Source of the DNA: Vicinamibacterales bacterium
GTDB lineage: Bacteria; Acidobacteriota; Vicinamibacteria; Vicinamibacterales; UBA2999
Direction of reading: 5' to 3'
Assembly: GCA_035649395.1 (NCBI GenBank)
Contig: DASRJR010000174.1
Coordinates: 9,353-73,352 of the forward strand
DNA length: 64,000 bases
The position numbers and the translations under genes were made by a program. Of the stretch, positions 1,856 to 40,892 are shown piece after piece; positions within the stretch are counted from its first letter, which is position 1; every line of letters begins with the position of its first letter. The notes beneath the pieces are model-generated. The model searched no databases. It saw only the letters and a list, made by a program, of their open reading frames with translations, and had not been told where the DNA came from.

Positions 1856-3133
1856 ATGAAGTTCGCGTTCATCGCGCCGCGTTACGGCGCCGACGTCACA
1901 TCGGGACCCGATCACGCGTGCCGGCTGCTGGCCGAGCAGGTGTCCGCGCGTCACGACGTTGACGTGCTGACCACCTGCGCCCGCGAACCGGGAGCCTGGA
2001 AAAACGACTACGCGGAAGGAGCCGACCGGGTCCGCGGCGCGCTCGTCCGGCGTTTTGCCGTCGCTCAGGCGACCGACCGGTCGTCGCTGCATGCGCTGAG
2101 CCGTCGGCTCCAGGTGGAGCCGCCGTCGAGGACGGACGAGGTCGACTGGGTTCGACTGTACGGCCCCTCGTCTCCCGGGCTCATCGACCACCTCAAGCGG
2201 CAGCACCGTTCGTACGACGTTCTGGTCTTCTTCGGTCTCCAGCATTCGTTGACGGTGCTTGGTCTCGAAACGGCCCCCGAGCGCAGCGTGATCTTCCCGT
2301 ACTTGCGGTTGCGGCCGGAGCTGCGGTTCGGGCTCTGGAGTGACGTGCTGCAATCGGCGAAGGGAGTGGGCTACTTCTCCGAGGCAGAGCGGCGCCTGGT
2401 GCGCTCGTACGTCGGACTCACACCGTCGCACGACGAAGTGGTCTGCATCGGCGTCGACCCGCCGCCGATGCAGTCGTATCCGCGTCATCAGCAGGACCCG
2501 GCCGACGTGATCGTTGATGAAAGCGACGCCTCATCCGATAGCCCGCCGGTGGAGTCAGACGACTATCTCGCGCGGCGCGGGGTTCCATTCCGCCGGCGCC
2601 ATCGACTCTACGGCAGCTTCGTGCTCTACGGCGGCCGCGTTGAACCGGACAACGGCTGCGAAGAAATGCTGGAGTACTTCGATACCTACGCCGCTTCGGA
2701 CGAGGACGCGATGCTCGTTCTGATGGGCGTCAAGATGATGAAGGTGCCGGAGGAGCGCTACCTTCGAATGGCCGGCGTGCTCCCCGAGCGCGAGCGGATG
2801 ATCGCGTATGAGGCCGCAACCGTCACGATCGCGCCGGCGGCCGACGACCTCGTCGCGCAGCCGCTGCTGGAGAGCCTTGCCGTCGGGACGCCAGTCCTGG
2901 CGAACGGCGCGAATCCGGCCGCGGTCGAACACTGCCGCCGCTCGAACGCCGGCCTCTACTACACGAATCGAGACGAGTTTGTCGCGGCGCTCACCCAGCT
3001 GACGACGAACGCGCGGCTGCGCGAGCGGCTTGGCGAAAACGGTCGCGCATACATCCGCCAACACCATCGCTGGGACGGCGTCCTCGGCCGATTCGAACGG
3101 CTGATCGCACGCGCTCGCACGCGCGCCGCGTGA
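1856..3133 (+). CDS. glycosyltransferase, GT-B fold (family 4-like), tandem paralog of the previous gene
   Basis: 425-aa ORF starting 14 nt after the previous stop. Its N-terminus MKFAFIAPRYGADVTSGPDH parallels MKIAIVVQRYGADINGGAEL. C-terminal region: LLESLAVGTPVLANG. Confidence 0.8.
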   Translation: MKFAFIAPRYGADVTSGPDHACRLLAEQVSARHDVDVLTTCAREPGAWKNDYAEGADRVRGALVRRFAVAQATDRSSLHALSRRLQVEPPSRTDEVDWVRLYGPSSPGLIDHLKRQHRSYDVLVFFGLQHSLTVLGLETAPERSVIFPYLRLRPELRFGLWSDVLQSAKGVGYFSEAERRLVRSYVGLTPSHDEVVCIGVDPPPMQSYPRHQQDPADVIVDESDASSDSPPVESDDYLARRGVPFRRRHRLYGSFVLYGGRVEPDNGCEEMLEYFDTYAASDEDAMLVLMGVKMMKVPEERYLRMAGVLPERERMIAYEAATVTIAPAADDLVAQPLLESLAVGTPVLANGANPAAVEHCRRSNAGLYYTNRDEFVAALTQLTTNARLRERLGENGRAYIRQHHRWDGVLGRFERLIARARTRAA

Positions 3134-3134
3134 A

Positions 3135-3195
3135 GTCCGGCTAAGGCCGGACACGACGATTTCCGTGACGTCCGGCTGAAGCCGGACACGACGAT
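3135..3195. repeat. two tandem copies of a 26-nt hairpin-containing element (REP-like / bidirectional terminator)
   Basis: GTCCGGC-TAAG-GCCGGAC-ACGACGAT at 3135-3160 and GTCCGGC-TGAA-GCCGGAC-ACGACGAT at 3170-3195. Each has a 7-bp stem. They fill the gap between two convergent stop codons (3131-3133 and 3196-3198). Confidence 0.65.
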
Positions 3196-4659
<1,464 letters not shown>

Positions 4660-4661
4660 GA

Positions 4662-7631
4662 TCAAACCTGACTGGTCTCGCCTGACCGGAAGTGCTGTAC
4701 CGCCAAGGCCGGACGATCGTCCGCGACGGCAGGGAACGATAGGATGAACCGAGTGCCCTTCCCAACCACGCTGTCGCAATCGACGACGCCGCCGTGCTCT
4801 CGCACGATGCCATACGTGATCGACAGTCCGAGGCCCGTGCCCTGACCGATCGCCTTTGTCGTGAAGAACGGATCGTAGATGCGGGCCAGATACTCGTTGG
4901 GGATGCCTGAACCTGTGTCTGCAACCTCCGCGATGGCGCGACTGCCTTGCGCCCGAGTGGCGACGGAGAGCCAGCCGCCTTTCGGCATCGCATCGCGGGC
5001 ATTGAGGAACAGGTTGAGGAATACCTGCTGTAATTTGTGTTCCTGAGCGAGGACCACGACCGGCGTCTCGCTCAAGTCGCGCCGTACGCGCACGCGCTGC
5101 GTCTCGAACTGGTGTTCGAGCAGCGCCAGCACATCGACAATGACGAGGTTCACGTCGACGATCGACCGCTCGGAGGAGGTCGGCCGTGAAAGCGTCAGGA
5201 GGCCGTTGACAATCTTCGCGGCCCGGAACGTCTGCCGTTCGATCTTCTCCAGCAACTGCGTCCGAGGATCCTTGGGATCGGCACCCTCGAGCAGCATCTG
5301 CGTGAAGCTGGAGATGCCGGTCAACGGCGTGTTGACCTCGTGAGCCACGCCCGCGGCAAGCAGACCGATCGACGCCATCTTCTCGGAGATCCGCAGATGT
5401 TCTTCCAGCTGCATCCGTGCGGTCACGTCTTCGATGATCACAATCGTGCCTGCAGTCGTGACGTCCTCCCCCTGCGGGCGACGCAGCGGCATGACGGCGA
5501 CGTTGGCGATCAGCGCAATGCCGGGGCGGGATCCGCGCGGAGACAGCGGAACGCGCGACAGCGTGGCTCCATCGGGTGTGTCTCGCCTGGCCGCGCGAAC
5601 CGCCTCGACGAACGGCGCATCGAAGAGGTCATCGAACAGACGCCCGGCGGCCTCCGCATGCGGGATGCCGTAGAGCTGTTCCAGTGTGTGGTTCCACCGC
5701 ACGACGCGTTCGTCACGGTCGATCACCAGCAGCCCATCGTCGAGTGATTCGAGGATGTTCTCGTTGAAGGCGCGCATCCGATCGAGCTCGACGGCCTTCA
5801 CGTGCAGCTGGCGATAGAGCCGCGCATTCTCGAGGGCGGTCGCCATCTGCCCGGCAACGGCGGCAAGCAGGGCCATGTCCTCGCTGCTCAACGGGTCCCC
5901 GGAATTCTTCCGTCCGAGCGCGAGCACGGCGATCGTGCCCTCTTTCGCCACGCAGGGCACGAAGTAGTACAGCCCGGCATCGCGCCAGAACTCGATCTCC
6001 TCGGCCGCAAACCGGCCGACCGCCGTCGGGTCGTCGAGCGTGACGTTGTGGCCTTCCACCAGTCGGGCGCCGATCGCTGAGCGCTTCGGCAGTCCGGGCG
6101 GGTGGCTGCTGCCGAATCCCAGCGCCCACATCGAGCCGAAGTGCGGCGCCGCTTCGTCCTCGAGCAGGAGCGCCATTCGATCAACCAACAGCGTCTCGAC
6201 GACTCTCGACACCAGCCGCTCGGCCAGGCGATTCAGATCGAGATCGCTGTTCAAGTCGCGCGCAAACCCCAGCAAGGCACGCCGGTAGTCGTAGCGGTCA
6301 CGATAGAACGCGCGGTCGACCAGGTTCTGAACAAACGTCTTCAGGGGCGGCGTCAGCAGGACAGCCACCAGCGTGGCGAGAAATGCCAGCACCCAATCGT
6401 TCGCCGCGCTTCCCTTCAGCACGACGCGCTGCACGGCCTCGAGCAGAATCGCGTAGATCGCGACCATCGCCGCGAGCGCCGCGGCATATACCAGCGCGCG
6501 TTTGACGATGACCTCGATGTCGAGCAGGCGGTATCGCACGATCGCCGACGCATACGTCAGCGGGATCAGACTCAGCGGAATCGCCGACAATTCCATCGGC
6601 AGCGACGGCTCGACACCCAGCACGTACGGGAGCGCGTAACCGAGGGCGAACGTGCCGGCGCCAAGCGCCGTGCCCCACGCGATCCAGCGGAGCTGGCGAC
6701 GAGCGGTGATCGTGCGCACGTGCGACAGCGCACGAATCAACGTCACGAAACCGCTGATCAGGCAGGCCGCCAGATAGAGCAGCTCGAGCCGATCCAGCAG
6801 CGACACGATCGAGACGAACAGCCGCGGATCATTGGCGCTCTGCGCGACGGCCATGATGCGCGTCAGGCCCATCGCCACAGCGGGCAGATAGAACGCAACA
6901 ATGACCGAGCGTCCGAGCACTCCCTCCATCCATCGACGCGGGCGCTCGGGGAAGACCAGCGTGAAATGCAGGAAGAGCGGCGGGAGTGCAAGGATCGAGA
7001 CGGCGTCGGACCAGTAGAACACCCAATCGAGCCGATCGAGACGGCCGCTGAACGAGAAGGTGATGACACCGAAGAACGCGACCGCCACCCAGAAGAAGTG
7101 CAGGGTTGCCGGATCGCGTGGCCGACGCAGACGAACCGCACCGCCGACGAGCAGTGTGAAGATGCCCACCGCGGCGAGCACGAAGTACAGTGCACCGGGT
7201 CCGTTCGGCAACGGCGCGACACGCACATCGACGACCTCGCGCGTGCCAAGCCTGAGCATCGTGTAACGAAGCATCTGATCTCGACGGGCCGAATGCAGGA
7301 ACGCCAGGACATCAGACGCGCTTTGAACGGGCCGATCGTCGATCGCGATCAGCACGTCACCCGGTTTGAGACCGGTCGTTGCCGCGGGGCCGCCGGGCGC
7401 GATATCGGCGACAACGACGCCGGCGTCGCTCTCGCTCCACAGCACTCCGTCTTCGAACTCGTGCCACGTCGCACGCGTAGCGACGTTGGCCGCGCCGAGG
7501 CAGAGCAGGACCGCCACAACGACCAGCGGCACCGCTGGTCTCGTCCACCGGCCCCACATGGCCGGGATTCGCGCACCAATCCAATGACTAGAACGTCTCA
7601 TCCAATGAAATGGAGTGCAAAACAGCGTCAA
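4662..7631 (-). CDS. sensor histidine kinase: TM - periplasmic PDZ - polytopic membrane region - GAF - PAS - HisKA - HATPase
   Basis: PDZ-like segment VVVADIAPGGPAATTGLKPGDVLIAIDDRPVQSASDVLAFL lies between two hydrophobic helices. Multiple TM helices follow. GAF-like region (LALGRKNSGDPLSSEDMALLAAVAGQMATALENARLY). PAS (ILESLDDGLLVIDRDERVVRWN). H-box GVAHEVNTPL. N/G boxes FLNARDAM, DTGSGIP, GTGLGLSI. The start could be a later Met (7601 or 7559). Confidence 0.9.
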   Translation of the reverse strand: MTLFCTPFHWMRRSSHWIGARIPAMWGRWTRPAVPLVVVAVLLCLGAANVATRATWHEFEDGVLWSESDAGVVVADIAPGGPAATTGLKPGDVLIAIDDRPVQSASDVLAFLHSARRDQMLRYTMLRLGTREVVDVRVAPLPNGPGALYFVLAAVGIFTLLVGGAVRLRRPRDPATLHFFWVAVAFFGVITFSFSGRLDRLDWVFYWSDAVSILALPPLFLHFTLVFPERPRRWMEGVLGRSVIVAFYLPAVAMGLTRIMAVAQSANDPRLFVSIVSLLDRLELLYLAACLISGFVTLIRALSHVRTITARRQLRWIAWGTALGAGTFALGYALPYVLGVEPSLPMELSAIPLSLIPLTYASAIVRYRLLDIEVIVKRALVYAAALAAMVAIYAILLEAVQRVVLKGSAANDWVLAFLATLVAVLLTPPLKTFVQNLVDRAFYRDRYDYRRALLGFARDLNSDLDLNRLAERLVSRVVETLLVDRMALLLEDEAAPHFGSMWALGFGSSHPPGLPKRSAIGARLVEGHNVTLDDPTAVGRFAAEEIEFWRDAGLYYFVPCVAKEGTIAVLALGRKNSGDPLSSEDMALLAAVAGQMATALENARLYRQLHVKAVELDRMRAFNENILESLDDGLLVIDRDERVVRWNHTLEQLYGIPHAEAAGRLFDDLFDAPFVEAVRAARRDTPDGATLSRVPLSPRGSRPGIALIANVAVMPLRRPQGEDVTTAGTIVIIEDVTARMQLEEHLRISEKMASIGLLAAGVAHEVNTPLTGISSFTQMLLEGADPKDPRTQLLEKIERQTFRAAKIVNGLLTLSRPTSSERSIVDVNLVIVDVLALLEHQFETQRVRVRRDLSETPVVVLAQEHKLQQVFLNLFLNARDAMPKGGWLSVATRAQGSRAIAEVADTGSGIPNEYLARIYDPFFTTKAIGQGTGLGLSITYGIVREHGGVVDCDSVVGKGTRFILSFPAVADDRPALAVQHFRSGETSQV

Positions 7632-37770: not shown

Positions 37771-39657
37771 TCACTTCGAGCGTTCGAAATGCTTGAATAT
37801 GCTTTCCCGGATACCCAGGGGAACGATCGCAGGGTCATTCTTCGCGACGATGCGATTGCGTGGGGGCTGAAGCGTTGCGCAAAACAGCAAATCCTGACTC
37901 GCGCGCTCGCCGACGATGTAGCAACGATGTCCCTTCCATGTCACTGTGTCGAACACGTCGTTGAAGTACAACAACCTGTACGGAAAGTGGAGAAGTGTCA
38001 GCGCGCAGACCGTCGCCGCAGCCCCTGCAGCGACGACCCCCCAATGAATTGTCTGGCCCCTTCTTACGAGCTTCCAAACTGGATACCAGACAACGACGGT
38101 TACAATCGCGACAACCGCGAAGACTTGCCGGTAATGATTGTGATCAAACACGAAATCGTGAGAGAGCCGCCAGAGCTGGTCATCCGTGTCCATCTGCAGC
38201 GGCACGGCAAGCAGGACCACCAGCAAGGGTGCGAGAGACCAACAGGCCCAGACGACGGCGGCGGCGGAGACGATCAGCGCACAGGACGCGAGCACCGGCG
38301 CCTCGTCGAGTCGGAACCGATGAGCCGCTGACCGAAGCCATCGTCGAACGGAGTCGTCGATCGTTCGCACATGTGATGAAACCGCCACGGCCACACGACG
38401 GGCCACTACGAGCGCTGATAGCGGTACGAGACCCATCAGCAGAATCACCAAGGTCCCGACGTTGGCCTTTTGTCCCCAAACGAACCAATCCAACGGCGTT
38501 TCGTTCATGAACCCGGAACGCGCCAACATCAGATTGAACCATCCCGACGCCAGAAAGCCGATCGCAGTAACCCCAATGAGCAGGACAGCGACTGCAATGA
38601 ATGGCCTCGCGATCGCCCACAGCCACGGATGCGGGCCGACTTTGAGTGCACTGAGCGCCGCGAGCAGCTCGCTTGGGTTCGTGTAGCGTTCCTGCGGATC
38701 GAGCGCAATCGCACGCTCGACGACCTGCATGAAAGCGACCGGTAAATCGGGCCGCCGCTCGCTCAGCCAGCGATGCTGCCGTTTCGCGTGCGCCTGGTGC
38801 AATTCGTCGATCGTGCGGGCATCGACTGGATACTGTCCCGACACGAGGAAGTAGAGCAGGACGCCCAGGCTGTAGACGTCACTCGACGCGGAGGCGGGCT
38901 CACCTTCGAGGACCTCAGGCGCCATGTACAGCGGCGTGCCGGCCCGATCGCCGAACGTCCCCGGACGATCCGCCATTCGCCCGGTGCCGAAGTCCATCAG
39001 AACGATGCGGCCCCTCGCGTCGCGCATCACGTTCTTGGCCTTCACGTCGCGATGGATGTAGCCGGCGCCATGCACCGCCGCCAGCGCGCGGCACAGATCC
39101 TCGCCGATCCCGATCGCCTCGCGTGCGCTGAGCGTGCCGCGCAGGATGACTTCGTCGAGCGTCTGTCCTTCGACGAACTCCATGCACAACGCCGCCCGAT
39201 CCTCGTGCGCCTCGACGCCAAACACCTGCACGACGTTGTTGTGACGGATGCGCGCGAGCGCGCGCCCTTCCTTGAGCAGCTTGTCCTTGAGACGGGTGTC
39301 GCCGAACCGGACGTGCAGGATCTTCATCGCGACGTCGCGTTCCAGGTCGGAGTCCCAGGCCCGGTACACGGCGCCGTAGCTGCCCGCACCGACGCGATTC
39401 GCCAGCCGGTACTTCCCCCACACGTCGGGCACGCCGGCGCTGAGCGGGGGCAGCGGCATGCTGACCGCCGTCGGCATCTCGGTCATCAGATTCAGCGCGT
39501 CGACACGATGCAGGTTCGCGACGTCGCTGATGATGCGCAGGCAGTTCAGGAAGCGGTTGTCGCCCGCCGCCACGGTGCCGCCGTGAATGGCACCCCAGTC
39601 GACGGACATCCCGTCCGCGATGTGCTCGATGACTTCGTCGAGGACCGCTTCAGACAT
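37771..39657 (-). CDS. Ser/Thr protein kinase with a ~55-aa N-terminal module and a ~300-aa polytopic membrane C-terminal domain
   Basis: Gly-loop GAGSYGAVY, VAMKIL lysine, catalytic loop HRDVKAKN, DFG, APE. About six hydrophobic helices follow residue ~335. Confidence 0.9.
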   Translation of the reverse strand: MSEAVLDEVIEHIADGMSVDWGAIHGGTVAAGDNRFLNCLRIISDVANLHRVDALNLMTEMPTAVSMPLPPLSAGVPDVWGKYRLANRVGAGSYGAVYRAWDSDLERDVAMKILHVRFGDTRLKDKLLKEGRALARIRHNNVVQVFGVEAHEDRAALCMEFVEGQTLDEVILRGTLSAREAIGIGEDLCRALAAVHGAGYIHRDVKAKNVMRDARGRIVLMDFGTGRMADRPGTFGDRAGTPLYMAPEVLEGEPASASSDVYSLGVLLYFLVSGQYPVDARTIDELHQAHAKRQHRWLSERRPDLPVAFMQVVERAIALDPQERYTNPSELLAALSALKVGPHPWLWAIARPFIAVAVLLIGVTAIGFLASGWFNLMLARSGFMNETPLDWFVWGQKANVGTLVILLMGLVPLSALVVARRVAVAVSSHVRTIDDSVRRWLRSAAHRFRLDEAPVLASCALIVSAAAVVWACWSLAPLLVVLLAVPLQMDTDDQLWRLSHDFVFDHNHYRQVFAVVAIVTVVVWYPVWKLVRRGQTIHWGVVAAGAAATVCALTLLHFPYRLLYFNDVFDTVTWKGHRCYIVGERASQDLLFCATLQPPRNRIVAKNDPAIVPLGIRESIFKHFERSK

Positions 39658-40102
39658 GACCCATCTCGATCGCCAGCCGCTTGAGCGCGCGCGCGACGGC
39701 TCGCCGCGCGGCGATCGCTGCCTCGCGCGTCGTGCGGTAGTGATACCCGAGCACGGCCGCCAGATCGGTATAGCTGCTCAACAGCTCGAGCCGGCCAATC
39801 ACCGCGTGGCGTTCGGCGCGCTCCAGCTGTCGCAACGCGGCCTGATACTTCGCGGCCTGCGCCTCACCGACGACGACTTCGACCGTGGGCTCCTCGGTCG
39901 CATTCGCGGGCGGCTCCGAGGGCACGGGGATGTAGGTGGAATACGCGCTCAGCCGATAGAAGTTGGCGACGTCGTGGATGATTCGCAGATCGGCCGCCCA
40001 GGCGCTCTTGCCTTCTGCGGTCGCATGGCGCTCGACGGTGCGCCAGTCCACCGGTAAGCCGTCGACGATGTTCTCGATGGCCTGGTCGACGGCTTCAGAC
40101 AC
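39650..40102 (-). CDS. chimeric small protein: kinase-N-terminal-like module fused to a sigma70 region-4-like HTH
   Basis: Residues 1-53 align with kinase residues 1-54 (MSEAV, I-DG, VDW, LRII-DVAN). Residues ~78-150 align with the C-terminal region 4 of the upstream ECF sigma (IGRLE, Y-DLA-VLG, ALK-LA-EM). The GTG start overlaps the sigma stop (GTGTCTGA) and its stop overlaps the kinase start (ATGTCTGA). Confidence 0.7.
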   Translation of the reverse strand: MSEAVDQAIENIVDGLPVDWRTVERHATAEGKSAWAADLRIIHDVANFYRLSAYSTYIPVPSEPPANATEEPTVEVVVGEAQAAKYQAALRQLERAERHAVIGRLELLSSYTDLAAVLGYHYRTTREAAIAARRAVARALKRLAIEMGHV

Positions 40103-40811
40103 CGCGCATCTCCCTCGCCAGATGCTTCAACGCACGTGTCACGGCCATGCGCGCGGCATCCGCCGAGGGTCTGCCGAGCACGACGGCCAAGTCCTGATAG
40201 CTGTAGCCCATTTCCAGCCGGCCGATGATCGCTTCCTGCTCGTCCTCGCTGAGTCGTTCGAGCGCCCGGTCATACAGTTCGGCGTTCTCCTCGCCGATCA
40301 GCGCGTCGAGCGGGGACGTCGCTTCGTCTTTGAGCTCCTCGGAGAGTGCCGTTTGCATCGGGCGGCGACGGGTCATGCGGATGATGTCGCGAATCCGATT
40401 CATGACCGCCCTCCGCAGATACGCCTGCAGCGCGCCCTGGTGGCGCGGTTCGAACGTGCCCAGGTTGCGCATCGCGCTGATGACGGCGTCCTGAACGATA
40501 TCGGCCGTCTCGTTCATGCCGCGTGAGGCTGGCGGCAGCCGGCCGTGCGCCCACCGCTGCAGCGGCGGAAGACAGCGCTCGAGCAGGCGATCGAGCGCCT
40601 CGCCGTCGCCCGCCTTGGCGAGCTGCAGCAGTTCGACTGTGGTTTCCGGGTCGAGTGGCGGCTCGCTGGTGGAGCTGCCGAGGGACCCGTAGTCGGGTGT
40701 CATATCGGGACCATCCACTGGATGGTCGCGCCCGCATGATACCTTCGCGGGCGGTACGTCCGGAACGGGGGTCGGCAGCGTCTTTCGGCGGACGAGTGGG
40801 ACGAGTGCCAT
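40095..40811 (-). CDS. ECF-type RNA polymerase sigma factor (Sigma70_ECF / TIGR02999-like)
   Basis: ELLQLAKAGDGEALDRLLERCLPPLQRWAHGRL, DIVQDAVISAM, LQAYLRRAVMNRIRDIIR (region 2), and region 4 LSEDEQEAIIGRLEMGYSYQDLAVVLGRPSADAARMAVTRALKHLA. The true start may be Met37 (ATG at 40701-40703). Confidence 0.85.
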   Translation of the reverse strand: MALVPLVRRKTLPTPVPDVPPAKVSCGRDHPVDGPDMTPDYGSLGSSTSEPPLDPETTVELLQLAKAGDGEALDRLLERCLPPLQRWAHGRLPPASRGMNETADIVQDAVISAMRNLGTFEPRHQGALQAYLRRAVMNRIRDIIRMTRRRPMQTALSEELKDEATSPLDALIGEENAELYDRALERLSEDEQEAIIGRLEMGYSYQDLAVVLGRPSADAARMAVTRALKHLAREMRGV

Positions 40812-40892
40812 CGTAGTGGCCCTGATACCTCGGGCTCACTGACTACAACGTCAGTCTTCGCCAGTCCGAACGTAGGGGGAATCGCGAGAAAA

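Follow-up and report, generated by a model that had tools for sequence, protein, structure and literature searches.

The DNA considered here is a stretch of 64,000 nucleotides (the window) of contig DASRJR010000174.1, from a bacterium of the order Vicinamibacterales (assembly GCA_035649395.1), and its subject is a gene for a protein of 150 amino acids that lies between a gene for an extracytoplasmic function (ECF) sigma factor and a gene for a Hanks-type Ser/Thr kinase. The three open reading frames (ORFs) are consecutive, with stop/start overlaps of 8 nucleotides (nt), and all features are on the minus strand of the window. In the following, the upstream, middle and downstream genes are referred to as sigma, chimera and kinase, the N-terminal part of the chimera as N' and its C-terminal part as sigma4'. 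As judged from the comparisons described below, the middle gene is a true chimera of the N-terminal module of the kinase (N-module) and region 4 of the sigma factor, and the locus represents a novel version of the signalling module built from a sigma factor and a Ser/Thr kinase. The features are listed here, with dN/dS for the ratio of nonsynonymous to synonymous substitution rates, AF2 for AlphaFold2 and pLDDT for its predicted local distance difference test score.

40095..40811, minus strand: ECF sigma factor gene, 238 amino acids from the ATG at 40811, with an N-terminal extension of about 55 amino acids, sigma2 and sigma4 (Pfam, NCBIfam).
40095..40342, minus strand: sigma part of repeat copy 1, comprising the end of the linker and region 4 (about residues 157-238 of sigma); 49% identity in BLASTP, repeats D1 and D3 at a spacing of 445.
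40095..40102, minus strand: junction 1, GTGTCTGA, in which the sigma stop codon TGA overlaps the GTG start of the chimera by 8 nt.
39650..40102, minus strand: chimeric middle gene, 150 amino acids in the order N', variable linker, sigma4'; protein matches to kinase and sigma.
39944..40102, minus strand: N' (chimera residues 1-53), copy of the kinase N-module with three predicted helices; 41% identity, AF2 model, dN/dS 0.25.
39896..39943, minus strand: variable linker (chimera residues 54-69), the site of the duplication joint; no conserved columns, dN/dS 0.72, pLDDT below 50.
39650..39895, minus strand: sigma4' (chimera residues 70-150), copy of sigma region 4 with a 6-residue insertion YHYRTT in the turn of the helix-turn-helix; dN/dS 0.18.
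39650..39657, minus strand: junction 2, ATGTCTGA, in which the chimera stop overlaps the kinase ATG by 8 nt.
37771..39657, minus strand: Hanks-type Ser/Thr kinase, 628 amino acids, consisting of N-module, flexible linker, kinase domain (residues 83-328) and a polytopic membrane C-terminus (Pfam).
39493..39657, minus strand: kinase part of repeat copy 2, the kinase N-module (residues 1-55), from protein and DNA alignment.
40843..40871, minus strand: candidate ECF-type promoter GTTCGG-N16-CGTTGT upstream of the sigma gene, from an alignment of upstream regions.

The preliminary description of this DNA had noticed that the sequences around both gene overlaps begin with the same letters, and GCTTCAGACA is present base for base at 39647-39656 and at 40092-40101, with an offset of 445 nt. 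In the 55 nt that follow, 37 positions (67%) are identical between the two copies, which bears out the two thirds that had been counted by hand; random 55-mer pairs from the window share 15.0±3.5 identities, and none of 20,000 such pairs attained 37. A gapped local alignment of 39953-40160 with 39505-39716 is continuous across both gene junctions and scores 70, far above the background of 21.9±2.4 (maximum 31) obtained with 200 shuffles. Three collinear direct repeats (70 nt with 73% identity at a spacing of 445, 35 nt with 80% at 448 and 21 nt with 81% at 445) extend from the N-module side (39506/39954) to the side of the sigma2-sigma4 linker (39877/40322). A further repeat, D5, has a spacing of 466 and is off-register relative to the protein alignment; it was taken as chance. 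As had also been claimed, the two stop/start overlaps GTGTCTGA and ATGTCTGA are equivalent.

At the protein level, residues 1-74 of the chimera align with residues 1-74 of the kinase at 41% identity (E=2e-12), and residues 74-150 align with residues 168-238 of sigma at 49% identity (BLASTP, E=4e-16). The copy of the kinase N-module takes up residues 1 to about 57 of the chimera, and that of sigma region 4 residues from about 69 to 150. The amino-acid identity of about 50 percent proposed earlier was therefore right in its order of size, but the exact value is lower, at 41-49%. When the whole modules are codon-aligned, their nucleotide identity is just 58-59% and the synonymous divergence (dS) is about 1, which argues that the duplicated copies are old. 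The higher identity is confined to the vicinity of the junctions, and the doubly constrained overlap region is probably its cause.

The chimera occurs in 36 clusters of full-length homologs with 59-96% identity, all of them from soil metagenomes or from metagenome-assembled genomes (MAGs) labelled Vicinamibacterales. The chimera profile, when compared with 1.84 billion representative proteins, has only one 50%-identity cluster as a match at E<=1e-30, namely its own family; all other matches cover only one half of the protein. Among about 390 species genomes sampled (200 of the order and 194 of the family), only two, the genome of the window and genus member G295, carry a full-length copy. The possibility that the middle gene is an independent, widespread family, which had been named as a potential refutation, can thus be set aside. 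The order sigma, chimera, kinase is the same in all ten three-gene loci examined, which come from independent assemblies and comprise eight contigs looked up by exact protein, G295 and locus L093; DNA was available for nine of them, and an eleventh three-gene contig was listed without DNA. Where contigs are long enough, the three-gene loci are flanked by serC, pcnB and a gene for a tetratricopeptide repeat (TPR)-like protein on one side and by genes for a protein of about 240 amino acids and for polA on the other.

A look for relatives with the two-gene state, in which sigma is directly followed by the kinase, had been proposed as a check, and a kinase search of the genus found orthologous loci of this kind in G310, G311, G314, G320 and G325. 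An alignment of two-gene with three-gene junction DNA contains one uninterrupted gap that corresponds to the whole unit, i.e., the entire middle gene. The junction in G310, G311, G314 and G320 is identical to ATGTCTGA, whereas that of G325 is different. Likewise, the flanks of G310 (AWWD protein, TPR-like protein, pcnB) are those of the window, while the flanks of G325 are unlike them. The orthologous kinase of G320 (L054, C6:62521-64389) has two TGA and one TAA codons within the match and is either a pseudogene or affected by assembly errors. All of the approximately 25 paralogous sigma/kinase pairs examined are two-gene loci as well. The genome of the window (G000) contains only one other pair of a sigma factor and an N-module kinase, on contig C376 (5544-9060, with a 948-aa ORF), and this pair is farther from the chimera than the adjacent genes are.

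In phylogenetic trees, both halves of the chimera branch within the local ortholog group. The sigma4' sequences form one clade (support 100/100) in the sigma-4 tree (41 rows), and together with the orthologous sigma factors they are set apart from 18 paralogs (99/99). In the N-module tree (35 rows), the N' sequences likewise form one clade (100/99) within the ortholog group (98/99). A third tree, built from the kinase catalytic domain and thus from sequence outside the duplicated DNA, was rooted on paralogs and has the topology (G325,(G310 clade, three-gene clade)), with 95/98 for the three-gene clade. As the three-gene loci form one clade with two-gene outgroups in this tree, a single gain of the three-gene state suffices, and one gain is the most parsimonious reading of these sequences. 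The branching orders of the chimera clade and the sigma clade agree, as expected of co-inherited neighbours.

Based on these data, the locus began as an operon of two genes, one for an ECF sigma factor and one for a Hanks Ser/Thr kinase, that overlapped at ATGTCTGA. One tandem duplication of about 445 nt then spanned the sigma/kinase gene boundary, with its left breakpoint in the linker between sigma2 and sigma4, no later than sigma codon 157, and its right breakpoint just past the N-terminal helical module of about 55 amino acids of the kinase, around codons 57-68. The product has the order sigma2-sigma4, N'-sigma4', N-kinase, in which the middle part is an in-frame fusion ORF of 150 amino acids; this order and the two equivalent overlapping junctions result because the duplicated unit includes the gene junction. 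The alignments put the joint within the variable linker of the chimera (residues 54-69) and allow no finer placement. There was one such event, and its most likely place is the stem lineage of a subclade within a single Vicinamibacterales genus; both domains of the new gene have been under purifying selection ever since. A head-to-tail collinear repeat across a gene boundary, relatives with a single copy in the ancestral state, and halves that derive from the flanking genes are what characterizes a tandem-duplication chimera, and all three are found here. The origin by tandem duplication of the sigma/kinase junction, as put forward in the preliminary description, is hence supported by the self-alignment, by the two-gene relatives and by the trees. 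We consider a single local tandem duplication very likely as the origin of the chimera and regard the local origin, taken alone, as still more secure.

The time point of the duplication is less firmly placed, and several observations weigh against our preferred order of events. In the maximum-likelihood sigma-4 tree, sigma4' is joined with the sigma factors of the three-gene loci with a support of 74/66 only, and the topology of an earlier duplication, in which sigma4' stands outside all orthologous sigma factors, is not rejected (p=0.138 in the approximately unbiased test). The modules are short (about 66-83 columns), which limits the statistical weight of the trees on the timing, and the dS between the paralogous copies is saturated at about 1-1.8, so that no molecular date can be derived. 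In addition, every genome used is a MAG or a metagenome contig. A duplication after the split from the two-gene clade is nevertheless favoured, owing to the 74/66 support in combination with parsimony. Of the trees proposed earlier for dating the event, the sigma-4 and N-module phylogenies thus confirm the local ortholog group for both halves, but they do not settle the date relative to the split. The same unrejected topology would suit a scenario in which three genes were already present before the whole ortholog group diversified, and in which the loci of the G310 clade and of G325 became two-gene loci when one unit was precisely lost; recombination between direct repeats deletes exactly one unit. 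However, this would require at least two independent precise losses, all of the paralogous pairs mentioned above have two genes, and recombination of this kind should leave behind a sigma4 or N-module of mixed origin, whereas the two-gene sequences show none of the chimera-type characters (YHYRTT insertion, FYR motif). We think that an older three-gene state is quite improbable. A recombination between two different sigma/kinase paralog loci, or an assembly artefact, could also be imagined, given that genomes of this genus contain many paralogous sigma/kinase pairs and that databases hold an artefact-like singleton chimera, P0066. Yet both halves fall within the local ortholog group (99/99 and 98/99), the same arrangement recurs in ten loci of independent assemblies in which sigma, chimera and kinase co-diverge, and the only other pair in the genome of the window, C376, is more distant, so that this explanation is essentially refuted.

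The single local duplication was followed by divergence under constraint. Pairwise Nei-Gojobori dN/dS values were calculated for the nine three-gene loci with DNA (36 pairwise comparisons); the chimera has a median of 0.26 (range 0.13-0.44), as compared to 0.11 in sigma and 0.17 in the kinase. The linker of the chimera reaches 0.72, while N' has 0.25 and sigma4' has 0.18. Across the 36 chimera homologs, 45 columns are invariant, and the reading frame is intact in all 36 clusters. The start/stop coupling consists of the 8-nt overlap in most loci, with 4 nt in L044 and no overlap in L045. The chimera, which is confined to one clade of soil Acidobacteria, is under purifying selection in both domains, and the earlier suggestion that its intact frame reflects retention under selection rather than accident is thereby upheld. 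That the chimera might be a decaying by-product without a role could be argued from its faster evolution, with a dN of 0.28 as compared to 0.09 and 0.19 for its neighbours. But dN/dS lies at 0.13-0.44 in 36 of 36 comparisons, the frame and the invariant columns are preserved, and the coupling is kept in most loci; such a by-product is very improbable, and the selection data exclude a functionless relic.

Several changes are specific to the chimera. It carries FYR where the kinases have LHR, a motif whose H and R are invariant in all aligned kinase N-modules. The 6-residue insertion in the turn of the helix-turn-helix (YHYRTT or YHYRGT) and an invariant Thr in the sequence EEPTVE at the start of sigma4' are fixed, and in the recognition helix all chimera homologs have M changed to R and T changed to A. 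Both parents have changed too: on the three-gene stem, the C-terminus of sigma went from ..KRLAEEMQHV to ..KHLAREMRGV/E, while the chimera kept ..KRLAIEMGHV.

The N-module comprises about 55 residues, with invariant D15, G16, D20, H50 and R51 and the consensus ..IADGxxVDW..(L)..LRxI..VA.LHR. A search of 14 members against Pfam at E<=10 gave nothing relevant and in particular no anti-sigma family (zf-HC2/RskA class I), a profile search against the Protein Data Bank (PDB) found no relative but only chance matches to 'ADGxxVDW', and NCBIfam gave nothing. An anti-sigma domain was matched neither in the chimera nor in the kinase protein in Pfam or NCBIfam. It was also considered whether N' derives from sigma, as suggested by some BLAST alignments that stretch sigma residues 106-235 over the whole chimera, but this was rejected, with a probability of 0.5% in the hhalign comparison of N-modules with sigma. 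The chimera has no Pfam match at E<=1, and its NCBIfam matches are all sub-threshold and lie at residues 63-143. The JGI label 'sigma24 family protein' for the chimera is misleading, because sigma2 is missing and N' is not homologous to sigma. The AF2 model of the chimera predicts helices at residues 3-14, 20-29 and 33-55 in N' (pLDDT 80-88) and at 79-92, 95-105, 111-118 and 125-146 in sigma4'. Indirectly, it points to a defined mutual arrangement of N' and sigma4' in the model, since the predicted template modelling score (pTM) is 0.57 even though a third of the chain is disordered.

In the genome of the window, which is 85% complete, 87 ORFs have a Hanks kinase domain, and the N-module is found on only two of these, both directly behind a gene for this type of ECF sigma factor, a position that no other kinase of the genome has. 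Across the phylum, 15 of 201 sampled genomes contain the N-module, and it is always located at the start of long ORFs (544-1791 amino acids), the chimera being the exception. In several natural single-polypeptide fusions (P0049, P0052, P0043, P0053, P0093, P0108 and P0057), the reading frame of sigma4 runs on into an N-module and a kinase domain. The fusion in P0049 and P0052 is probably real, because two distinct related sequences share it. At loci L099 (ORF 2747-5596) and L101 (ORF 3065-5914), proteins of 950 amino acids are encoded downstream of an ECF sigma factor, with the N-module at the N-terminus, a large inserted region and the kinase domain from about residue 660. The protein P0066 (176 amino acids), mentioned above, consists of the N-module, the first approximately 55 residues of the kinase N-lobe and the sigma4 helix-turn-helix, joined at an 'ARV' microhomology. 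It was considered as a second chimera family and rejected, as the 97%-identical L079 (3125-5749) and the other retrieved loci are ordinary two-gene loci, and the apparent full coverage among P0066-like loci results from two adjacent genes. P0066 has probably been created by misassembly or by a very recent rearrangement.

The upstream sigma factor is complete, with matches to Sigma70_r2 (33.8 bits, cut-off 24) and Sigma70_r4_2 (29.5 bits, cut-off 25.7) in Pfam and to TIGR02937 (75 bits, cut-off 42.9) in NCBIfam. The closest NCBIfam subfamily, TIGR02984 (planctomycete subfamily 1), is matched with 80.6 bits, which is below its cut-off of 183.75. The extension of about 55 residues before sigma2 (40650-40811) contains GKVS.xRD and MTPDYGSLGSS and is conserved in frame among orthologs; some gene callers choose a later start, which results in a sigma protein of 201 amino acids. 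An apparent sigma70-type -10 element, GGTATCAT (40736-40745), was rejected, as it is conserved coding sequence (GKVS) of this extension with indels in multiples of 3. Region 2.2 of the window sigma has the motif E-T-A-D-IVQD, and all 30 paralogs have D/E/Q/S-T-x-D, so that the Thr at position 2 is invariant and the charges at positions 1 and 4 are mostly retained. About 30 kinase-linked sigma paralogs (loci L039-L078) have x-T-x-D-x-V-Q-D/E in region 2.2 and (T/P)SPL(D/E) in the sigma2-sigma4 linker in common. The corresponding motifs of the window sigma, at residues 107-114 and 163-168, are candidate phospho-sites that differ from the QTTA pattern of the family ECF43. Judged from its sequence, the window sigma could still be a kinase substrate. 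The kinase itself matches Pkinase (PF00069) with 167.6 bits over residues 83-328 (cut-off 31.7), and its translation contains the catalytic motifs GAGSYGAVY (GxGxxG), VAMK, HRDVKAKN (HRD) and DFG. The candidate promoter at 40843-40871 is positioned between the upstream gene for the TPR-like protein and the sigma start. It is kept in most three-gene loci (not in L043 and L045) and in the syntenic two-gene loci (not in G325), and since it resembles an ECF-type -35/-10 promoter, the operon may be auto-regulated.

The N-module would couple this class of kinases to their sigma factors, probably by docking on sigma4; it is taken as a docking element because only sigma-linked kinases carry it and because the natural fusion proteins link it covalently to sigma4. 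The chimera, which holds one copy of each partner surface, would then be a soluble decoy that is co-translated stoichiometrically by means of translational coupling. Its sigma4' would occupy the N-module of the kinase or act as a pseudo-substrate, and/or its N' would hold region 4 of sigma. In this way, the chimera would compete with sigma for the kinase, with the kinase for sigma, or both, and thereby set the threshold of the sigma-kinase pathway. To such a role, as decoy or partner-switch-like modulator of the docking, we assign a reasonable chance that is still somewhat below even. Some points speak against it. The docking of the N-module on sigma4 is putative, and the chimera may have lost binding to its ancestral partners, because it deviates from its parents at conserved positions, with FYR in place of LHR and the 6-residue insertion in the turn of the helix-turn-helix. 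Moreover, the AF2 model is of moderate quality, with a mean pLDDT of 65, a pTM of 0.57 and 52 of 150 residues disordered, and a fold search of this weak model against the PDB gave nothing at E<=0.001.

Alternatively, the chimera could be a sigma4-only DNA-binding protein that acts as repressor or competitor at the -35 elements of the regulon or at the beta-flap of RNA polymerase, with N' as an oligomerisation or kinase-tethering domain. This would be in line with the four helices and most of the recognition helix being kept in sigma4' (AARRAVARALKRL versus AARMAVTRALKHL), with sigma4' being the more constrained half and with the conserved ECF-type promoter motif upstream of the operon. But the insertion in the helix-turn-helix and the two recognition-helix changes are fixed in all homologs, and N' is under purifying selection too (0.25), which means that it is not a passive tag. 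We therefore consider a sigma4 competitor unlikely; the remaining probability falls to roles other than these two. That N-module and sigma region 4 were fused by evolution and that both are kept under selection points to a functional link and provides a simple hypothesis. In its most specific form, which we regard as doubtful, the chimera would be a newborn component of a partner switch, i.e., a sigma4 mimic tethered to a copy of the sigma-docking domain of the kinase, made in one duplication. If this were true, the N-terminal helical module of sigma-linked Hanks kinases would represent the long-missing anti-sigma-like element through which the kinase docks on its substrate, by binding to sigma region 4, and a two-component sigma/kinase pathway would have gained a third regulatory layer by a single mutational step. 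Irrespective of its function, the locus presents a clean case of prokaryotic gene birth by tandem duplication across a gene boundary, in which ancestral and derived states, the breakpoints, the preserved translational coupling and the later divergence are all visible in sister lineages.

The activation of kinase-linked ECF sigma factors occurs through phosphorylation of the sigma factor itself, at sites in sigma2.2 and in the linker between sigma2 and sigma4 (PMC13147305; PMC8999054). A close comparison is ECF43, with EcfP/PknT of Vibrio parahaemolyticus and EcfK/PknS of Xanthomonas citri; here, as well as in ECF59-62, ECF217 and ECF283, a sigma gene is likewise located directly upstream of a membrane Hanks kinase, without an anti-sigma factor (PMC13147305, PMC7826278). 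These systems are two-component, whereas the locus in the window has a third, chimeric gene in between. Their region 2.2 is uncharged (QTTA/STTA) with the phospho-Thr at position 3, in contrast to the charged E-T-A-D with the Thr at position 2 in the window sigma (PMC13147305, PMC8999054), and because the charged E-T-A-D-IVQD motif is kept, the window sigma is not a classic ECF43 member. As in the window kinase, the kinase domain of PknS follows a helical N-terminal module, in PknS of about 80 residues, and a flexible linker (PMC13147305). This module is described as an 81-residue bundle of three to four helices with no function assigned (PMC13147305), and the likeness is architectural; the N-module of the window has no detectable sequence similarity to any PDB chain. 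The published work on PknT/EcfP and PknS/EcfK has defined the phospho-sites, but not the docking of a Hanks kinase on its cognate ECF sigma factor.

A decoy is known from the PhyR-NepR-EcfG system (ECF15), in which a protein with a sigma-like domain that is unable to direct transcription acts as decoy in an ECF pathway (PMC8999054); a corresponding mimicry by the chimera is hypothetical. PhyR combines a full sigma-like domain with a receiver domain and is ancient and widespread, whereas the chimera has sigma4 only, together with a kinase-derived module, and arose recently from its own sigma factor; Pfam and NCBIfam scans find no receiver domain in it. In SigO-RsoA of Bacillus subtilis, a sigma4-type domain is located, as in the chimera, on a separate small polypeptide beside the sigma gene (PMC7826278). 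The two halves of SigO-RsoA are complementary, though, whereas the upstream sigma factor of the window is complete with sigma2 and sigma4, which would make sigma4' redundant for promoter recognition. Finally, the single-chain fusions (P0049, P0052, P0043, P0053 and P0093) have the same two modules covalently joined as the chimera does. In these proteins, which are read-through fusions of entire genes, the order is sigma4 followed by the N-module, whereas the chimera has N' followed by sigma4' and is a separate small protein made from duplicated pieces.

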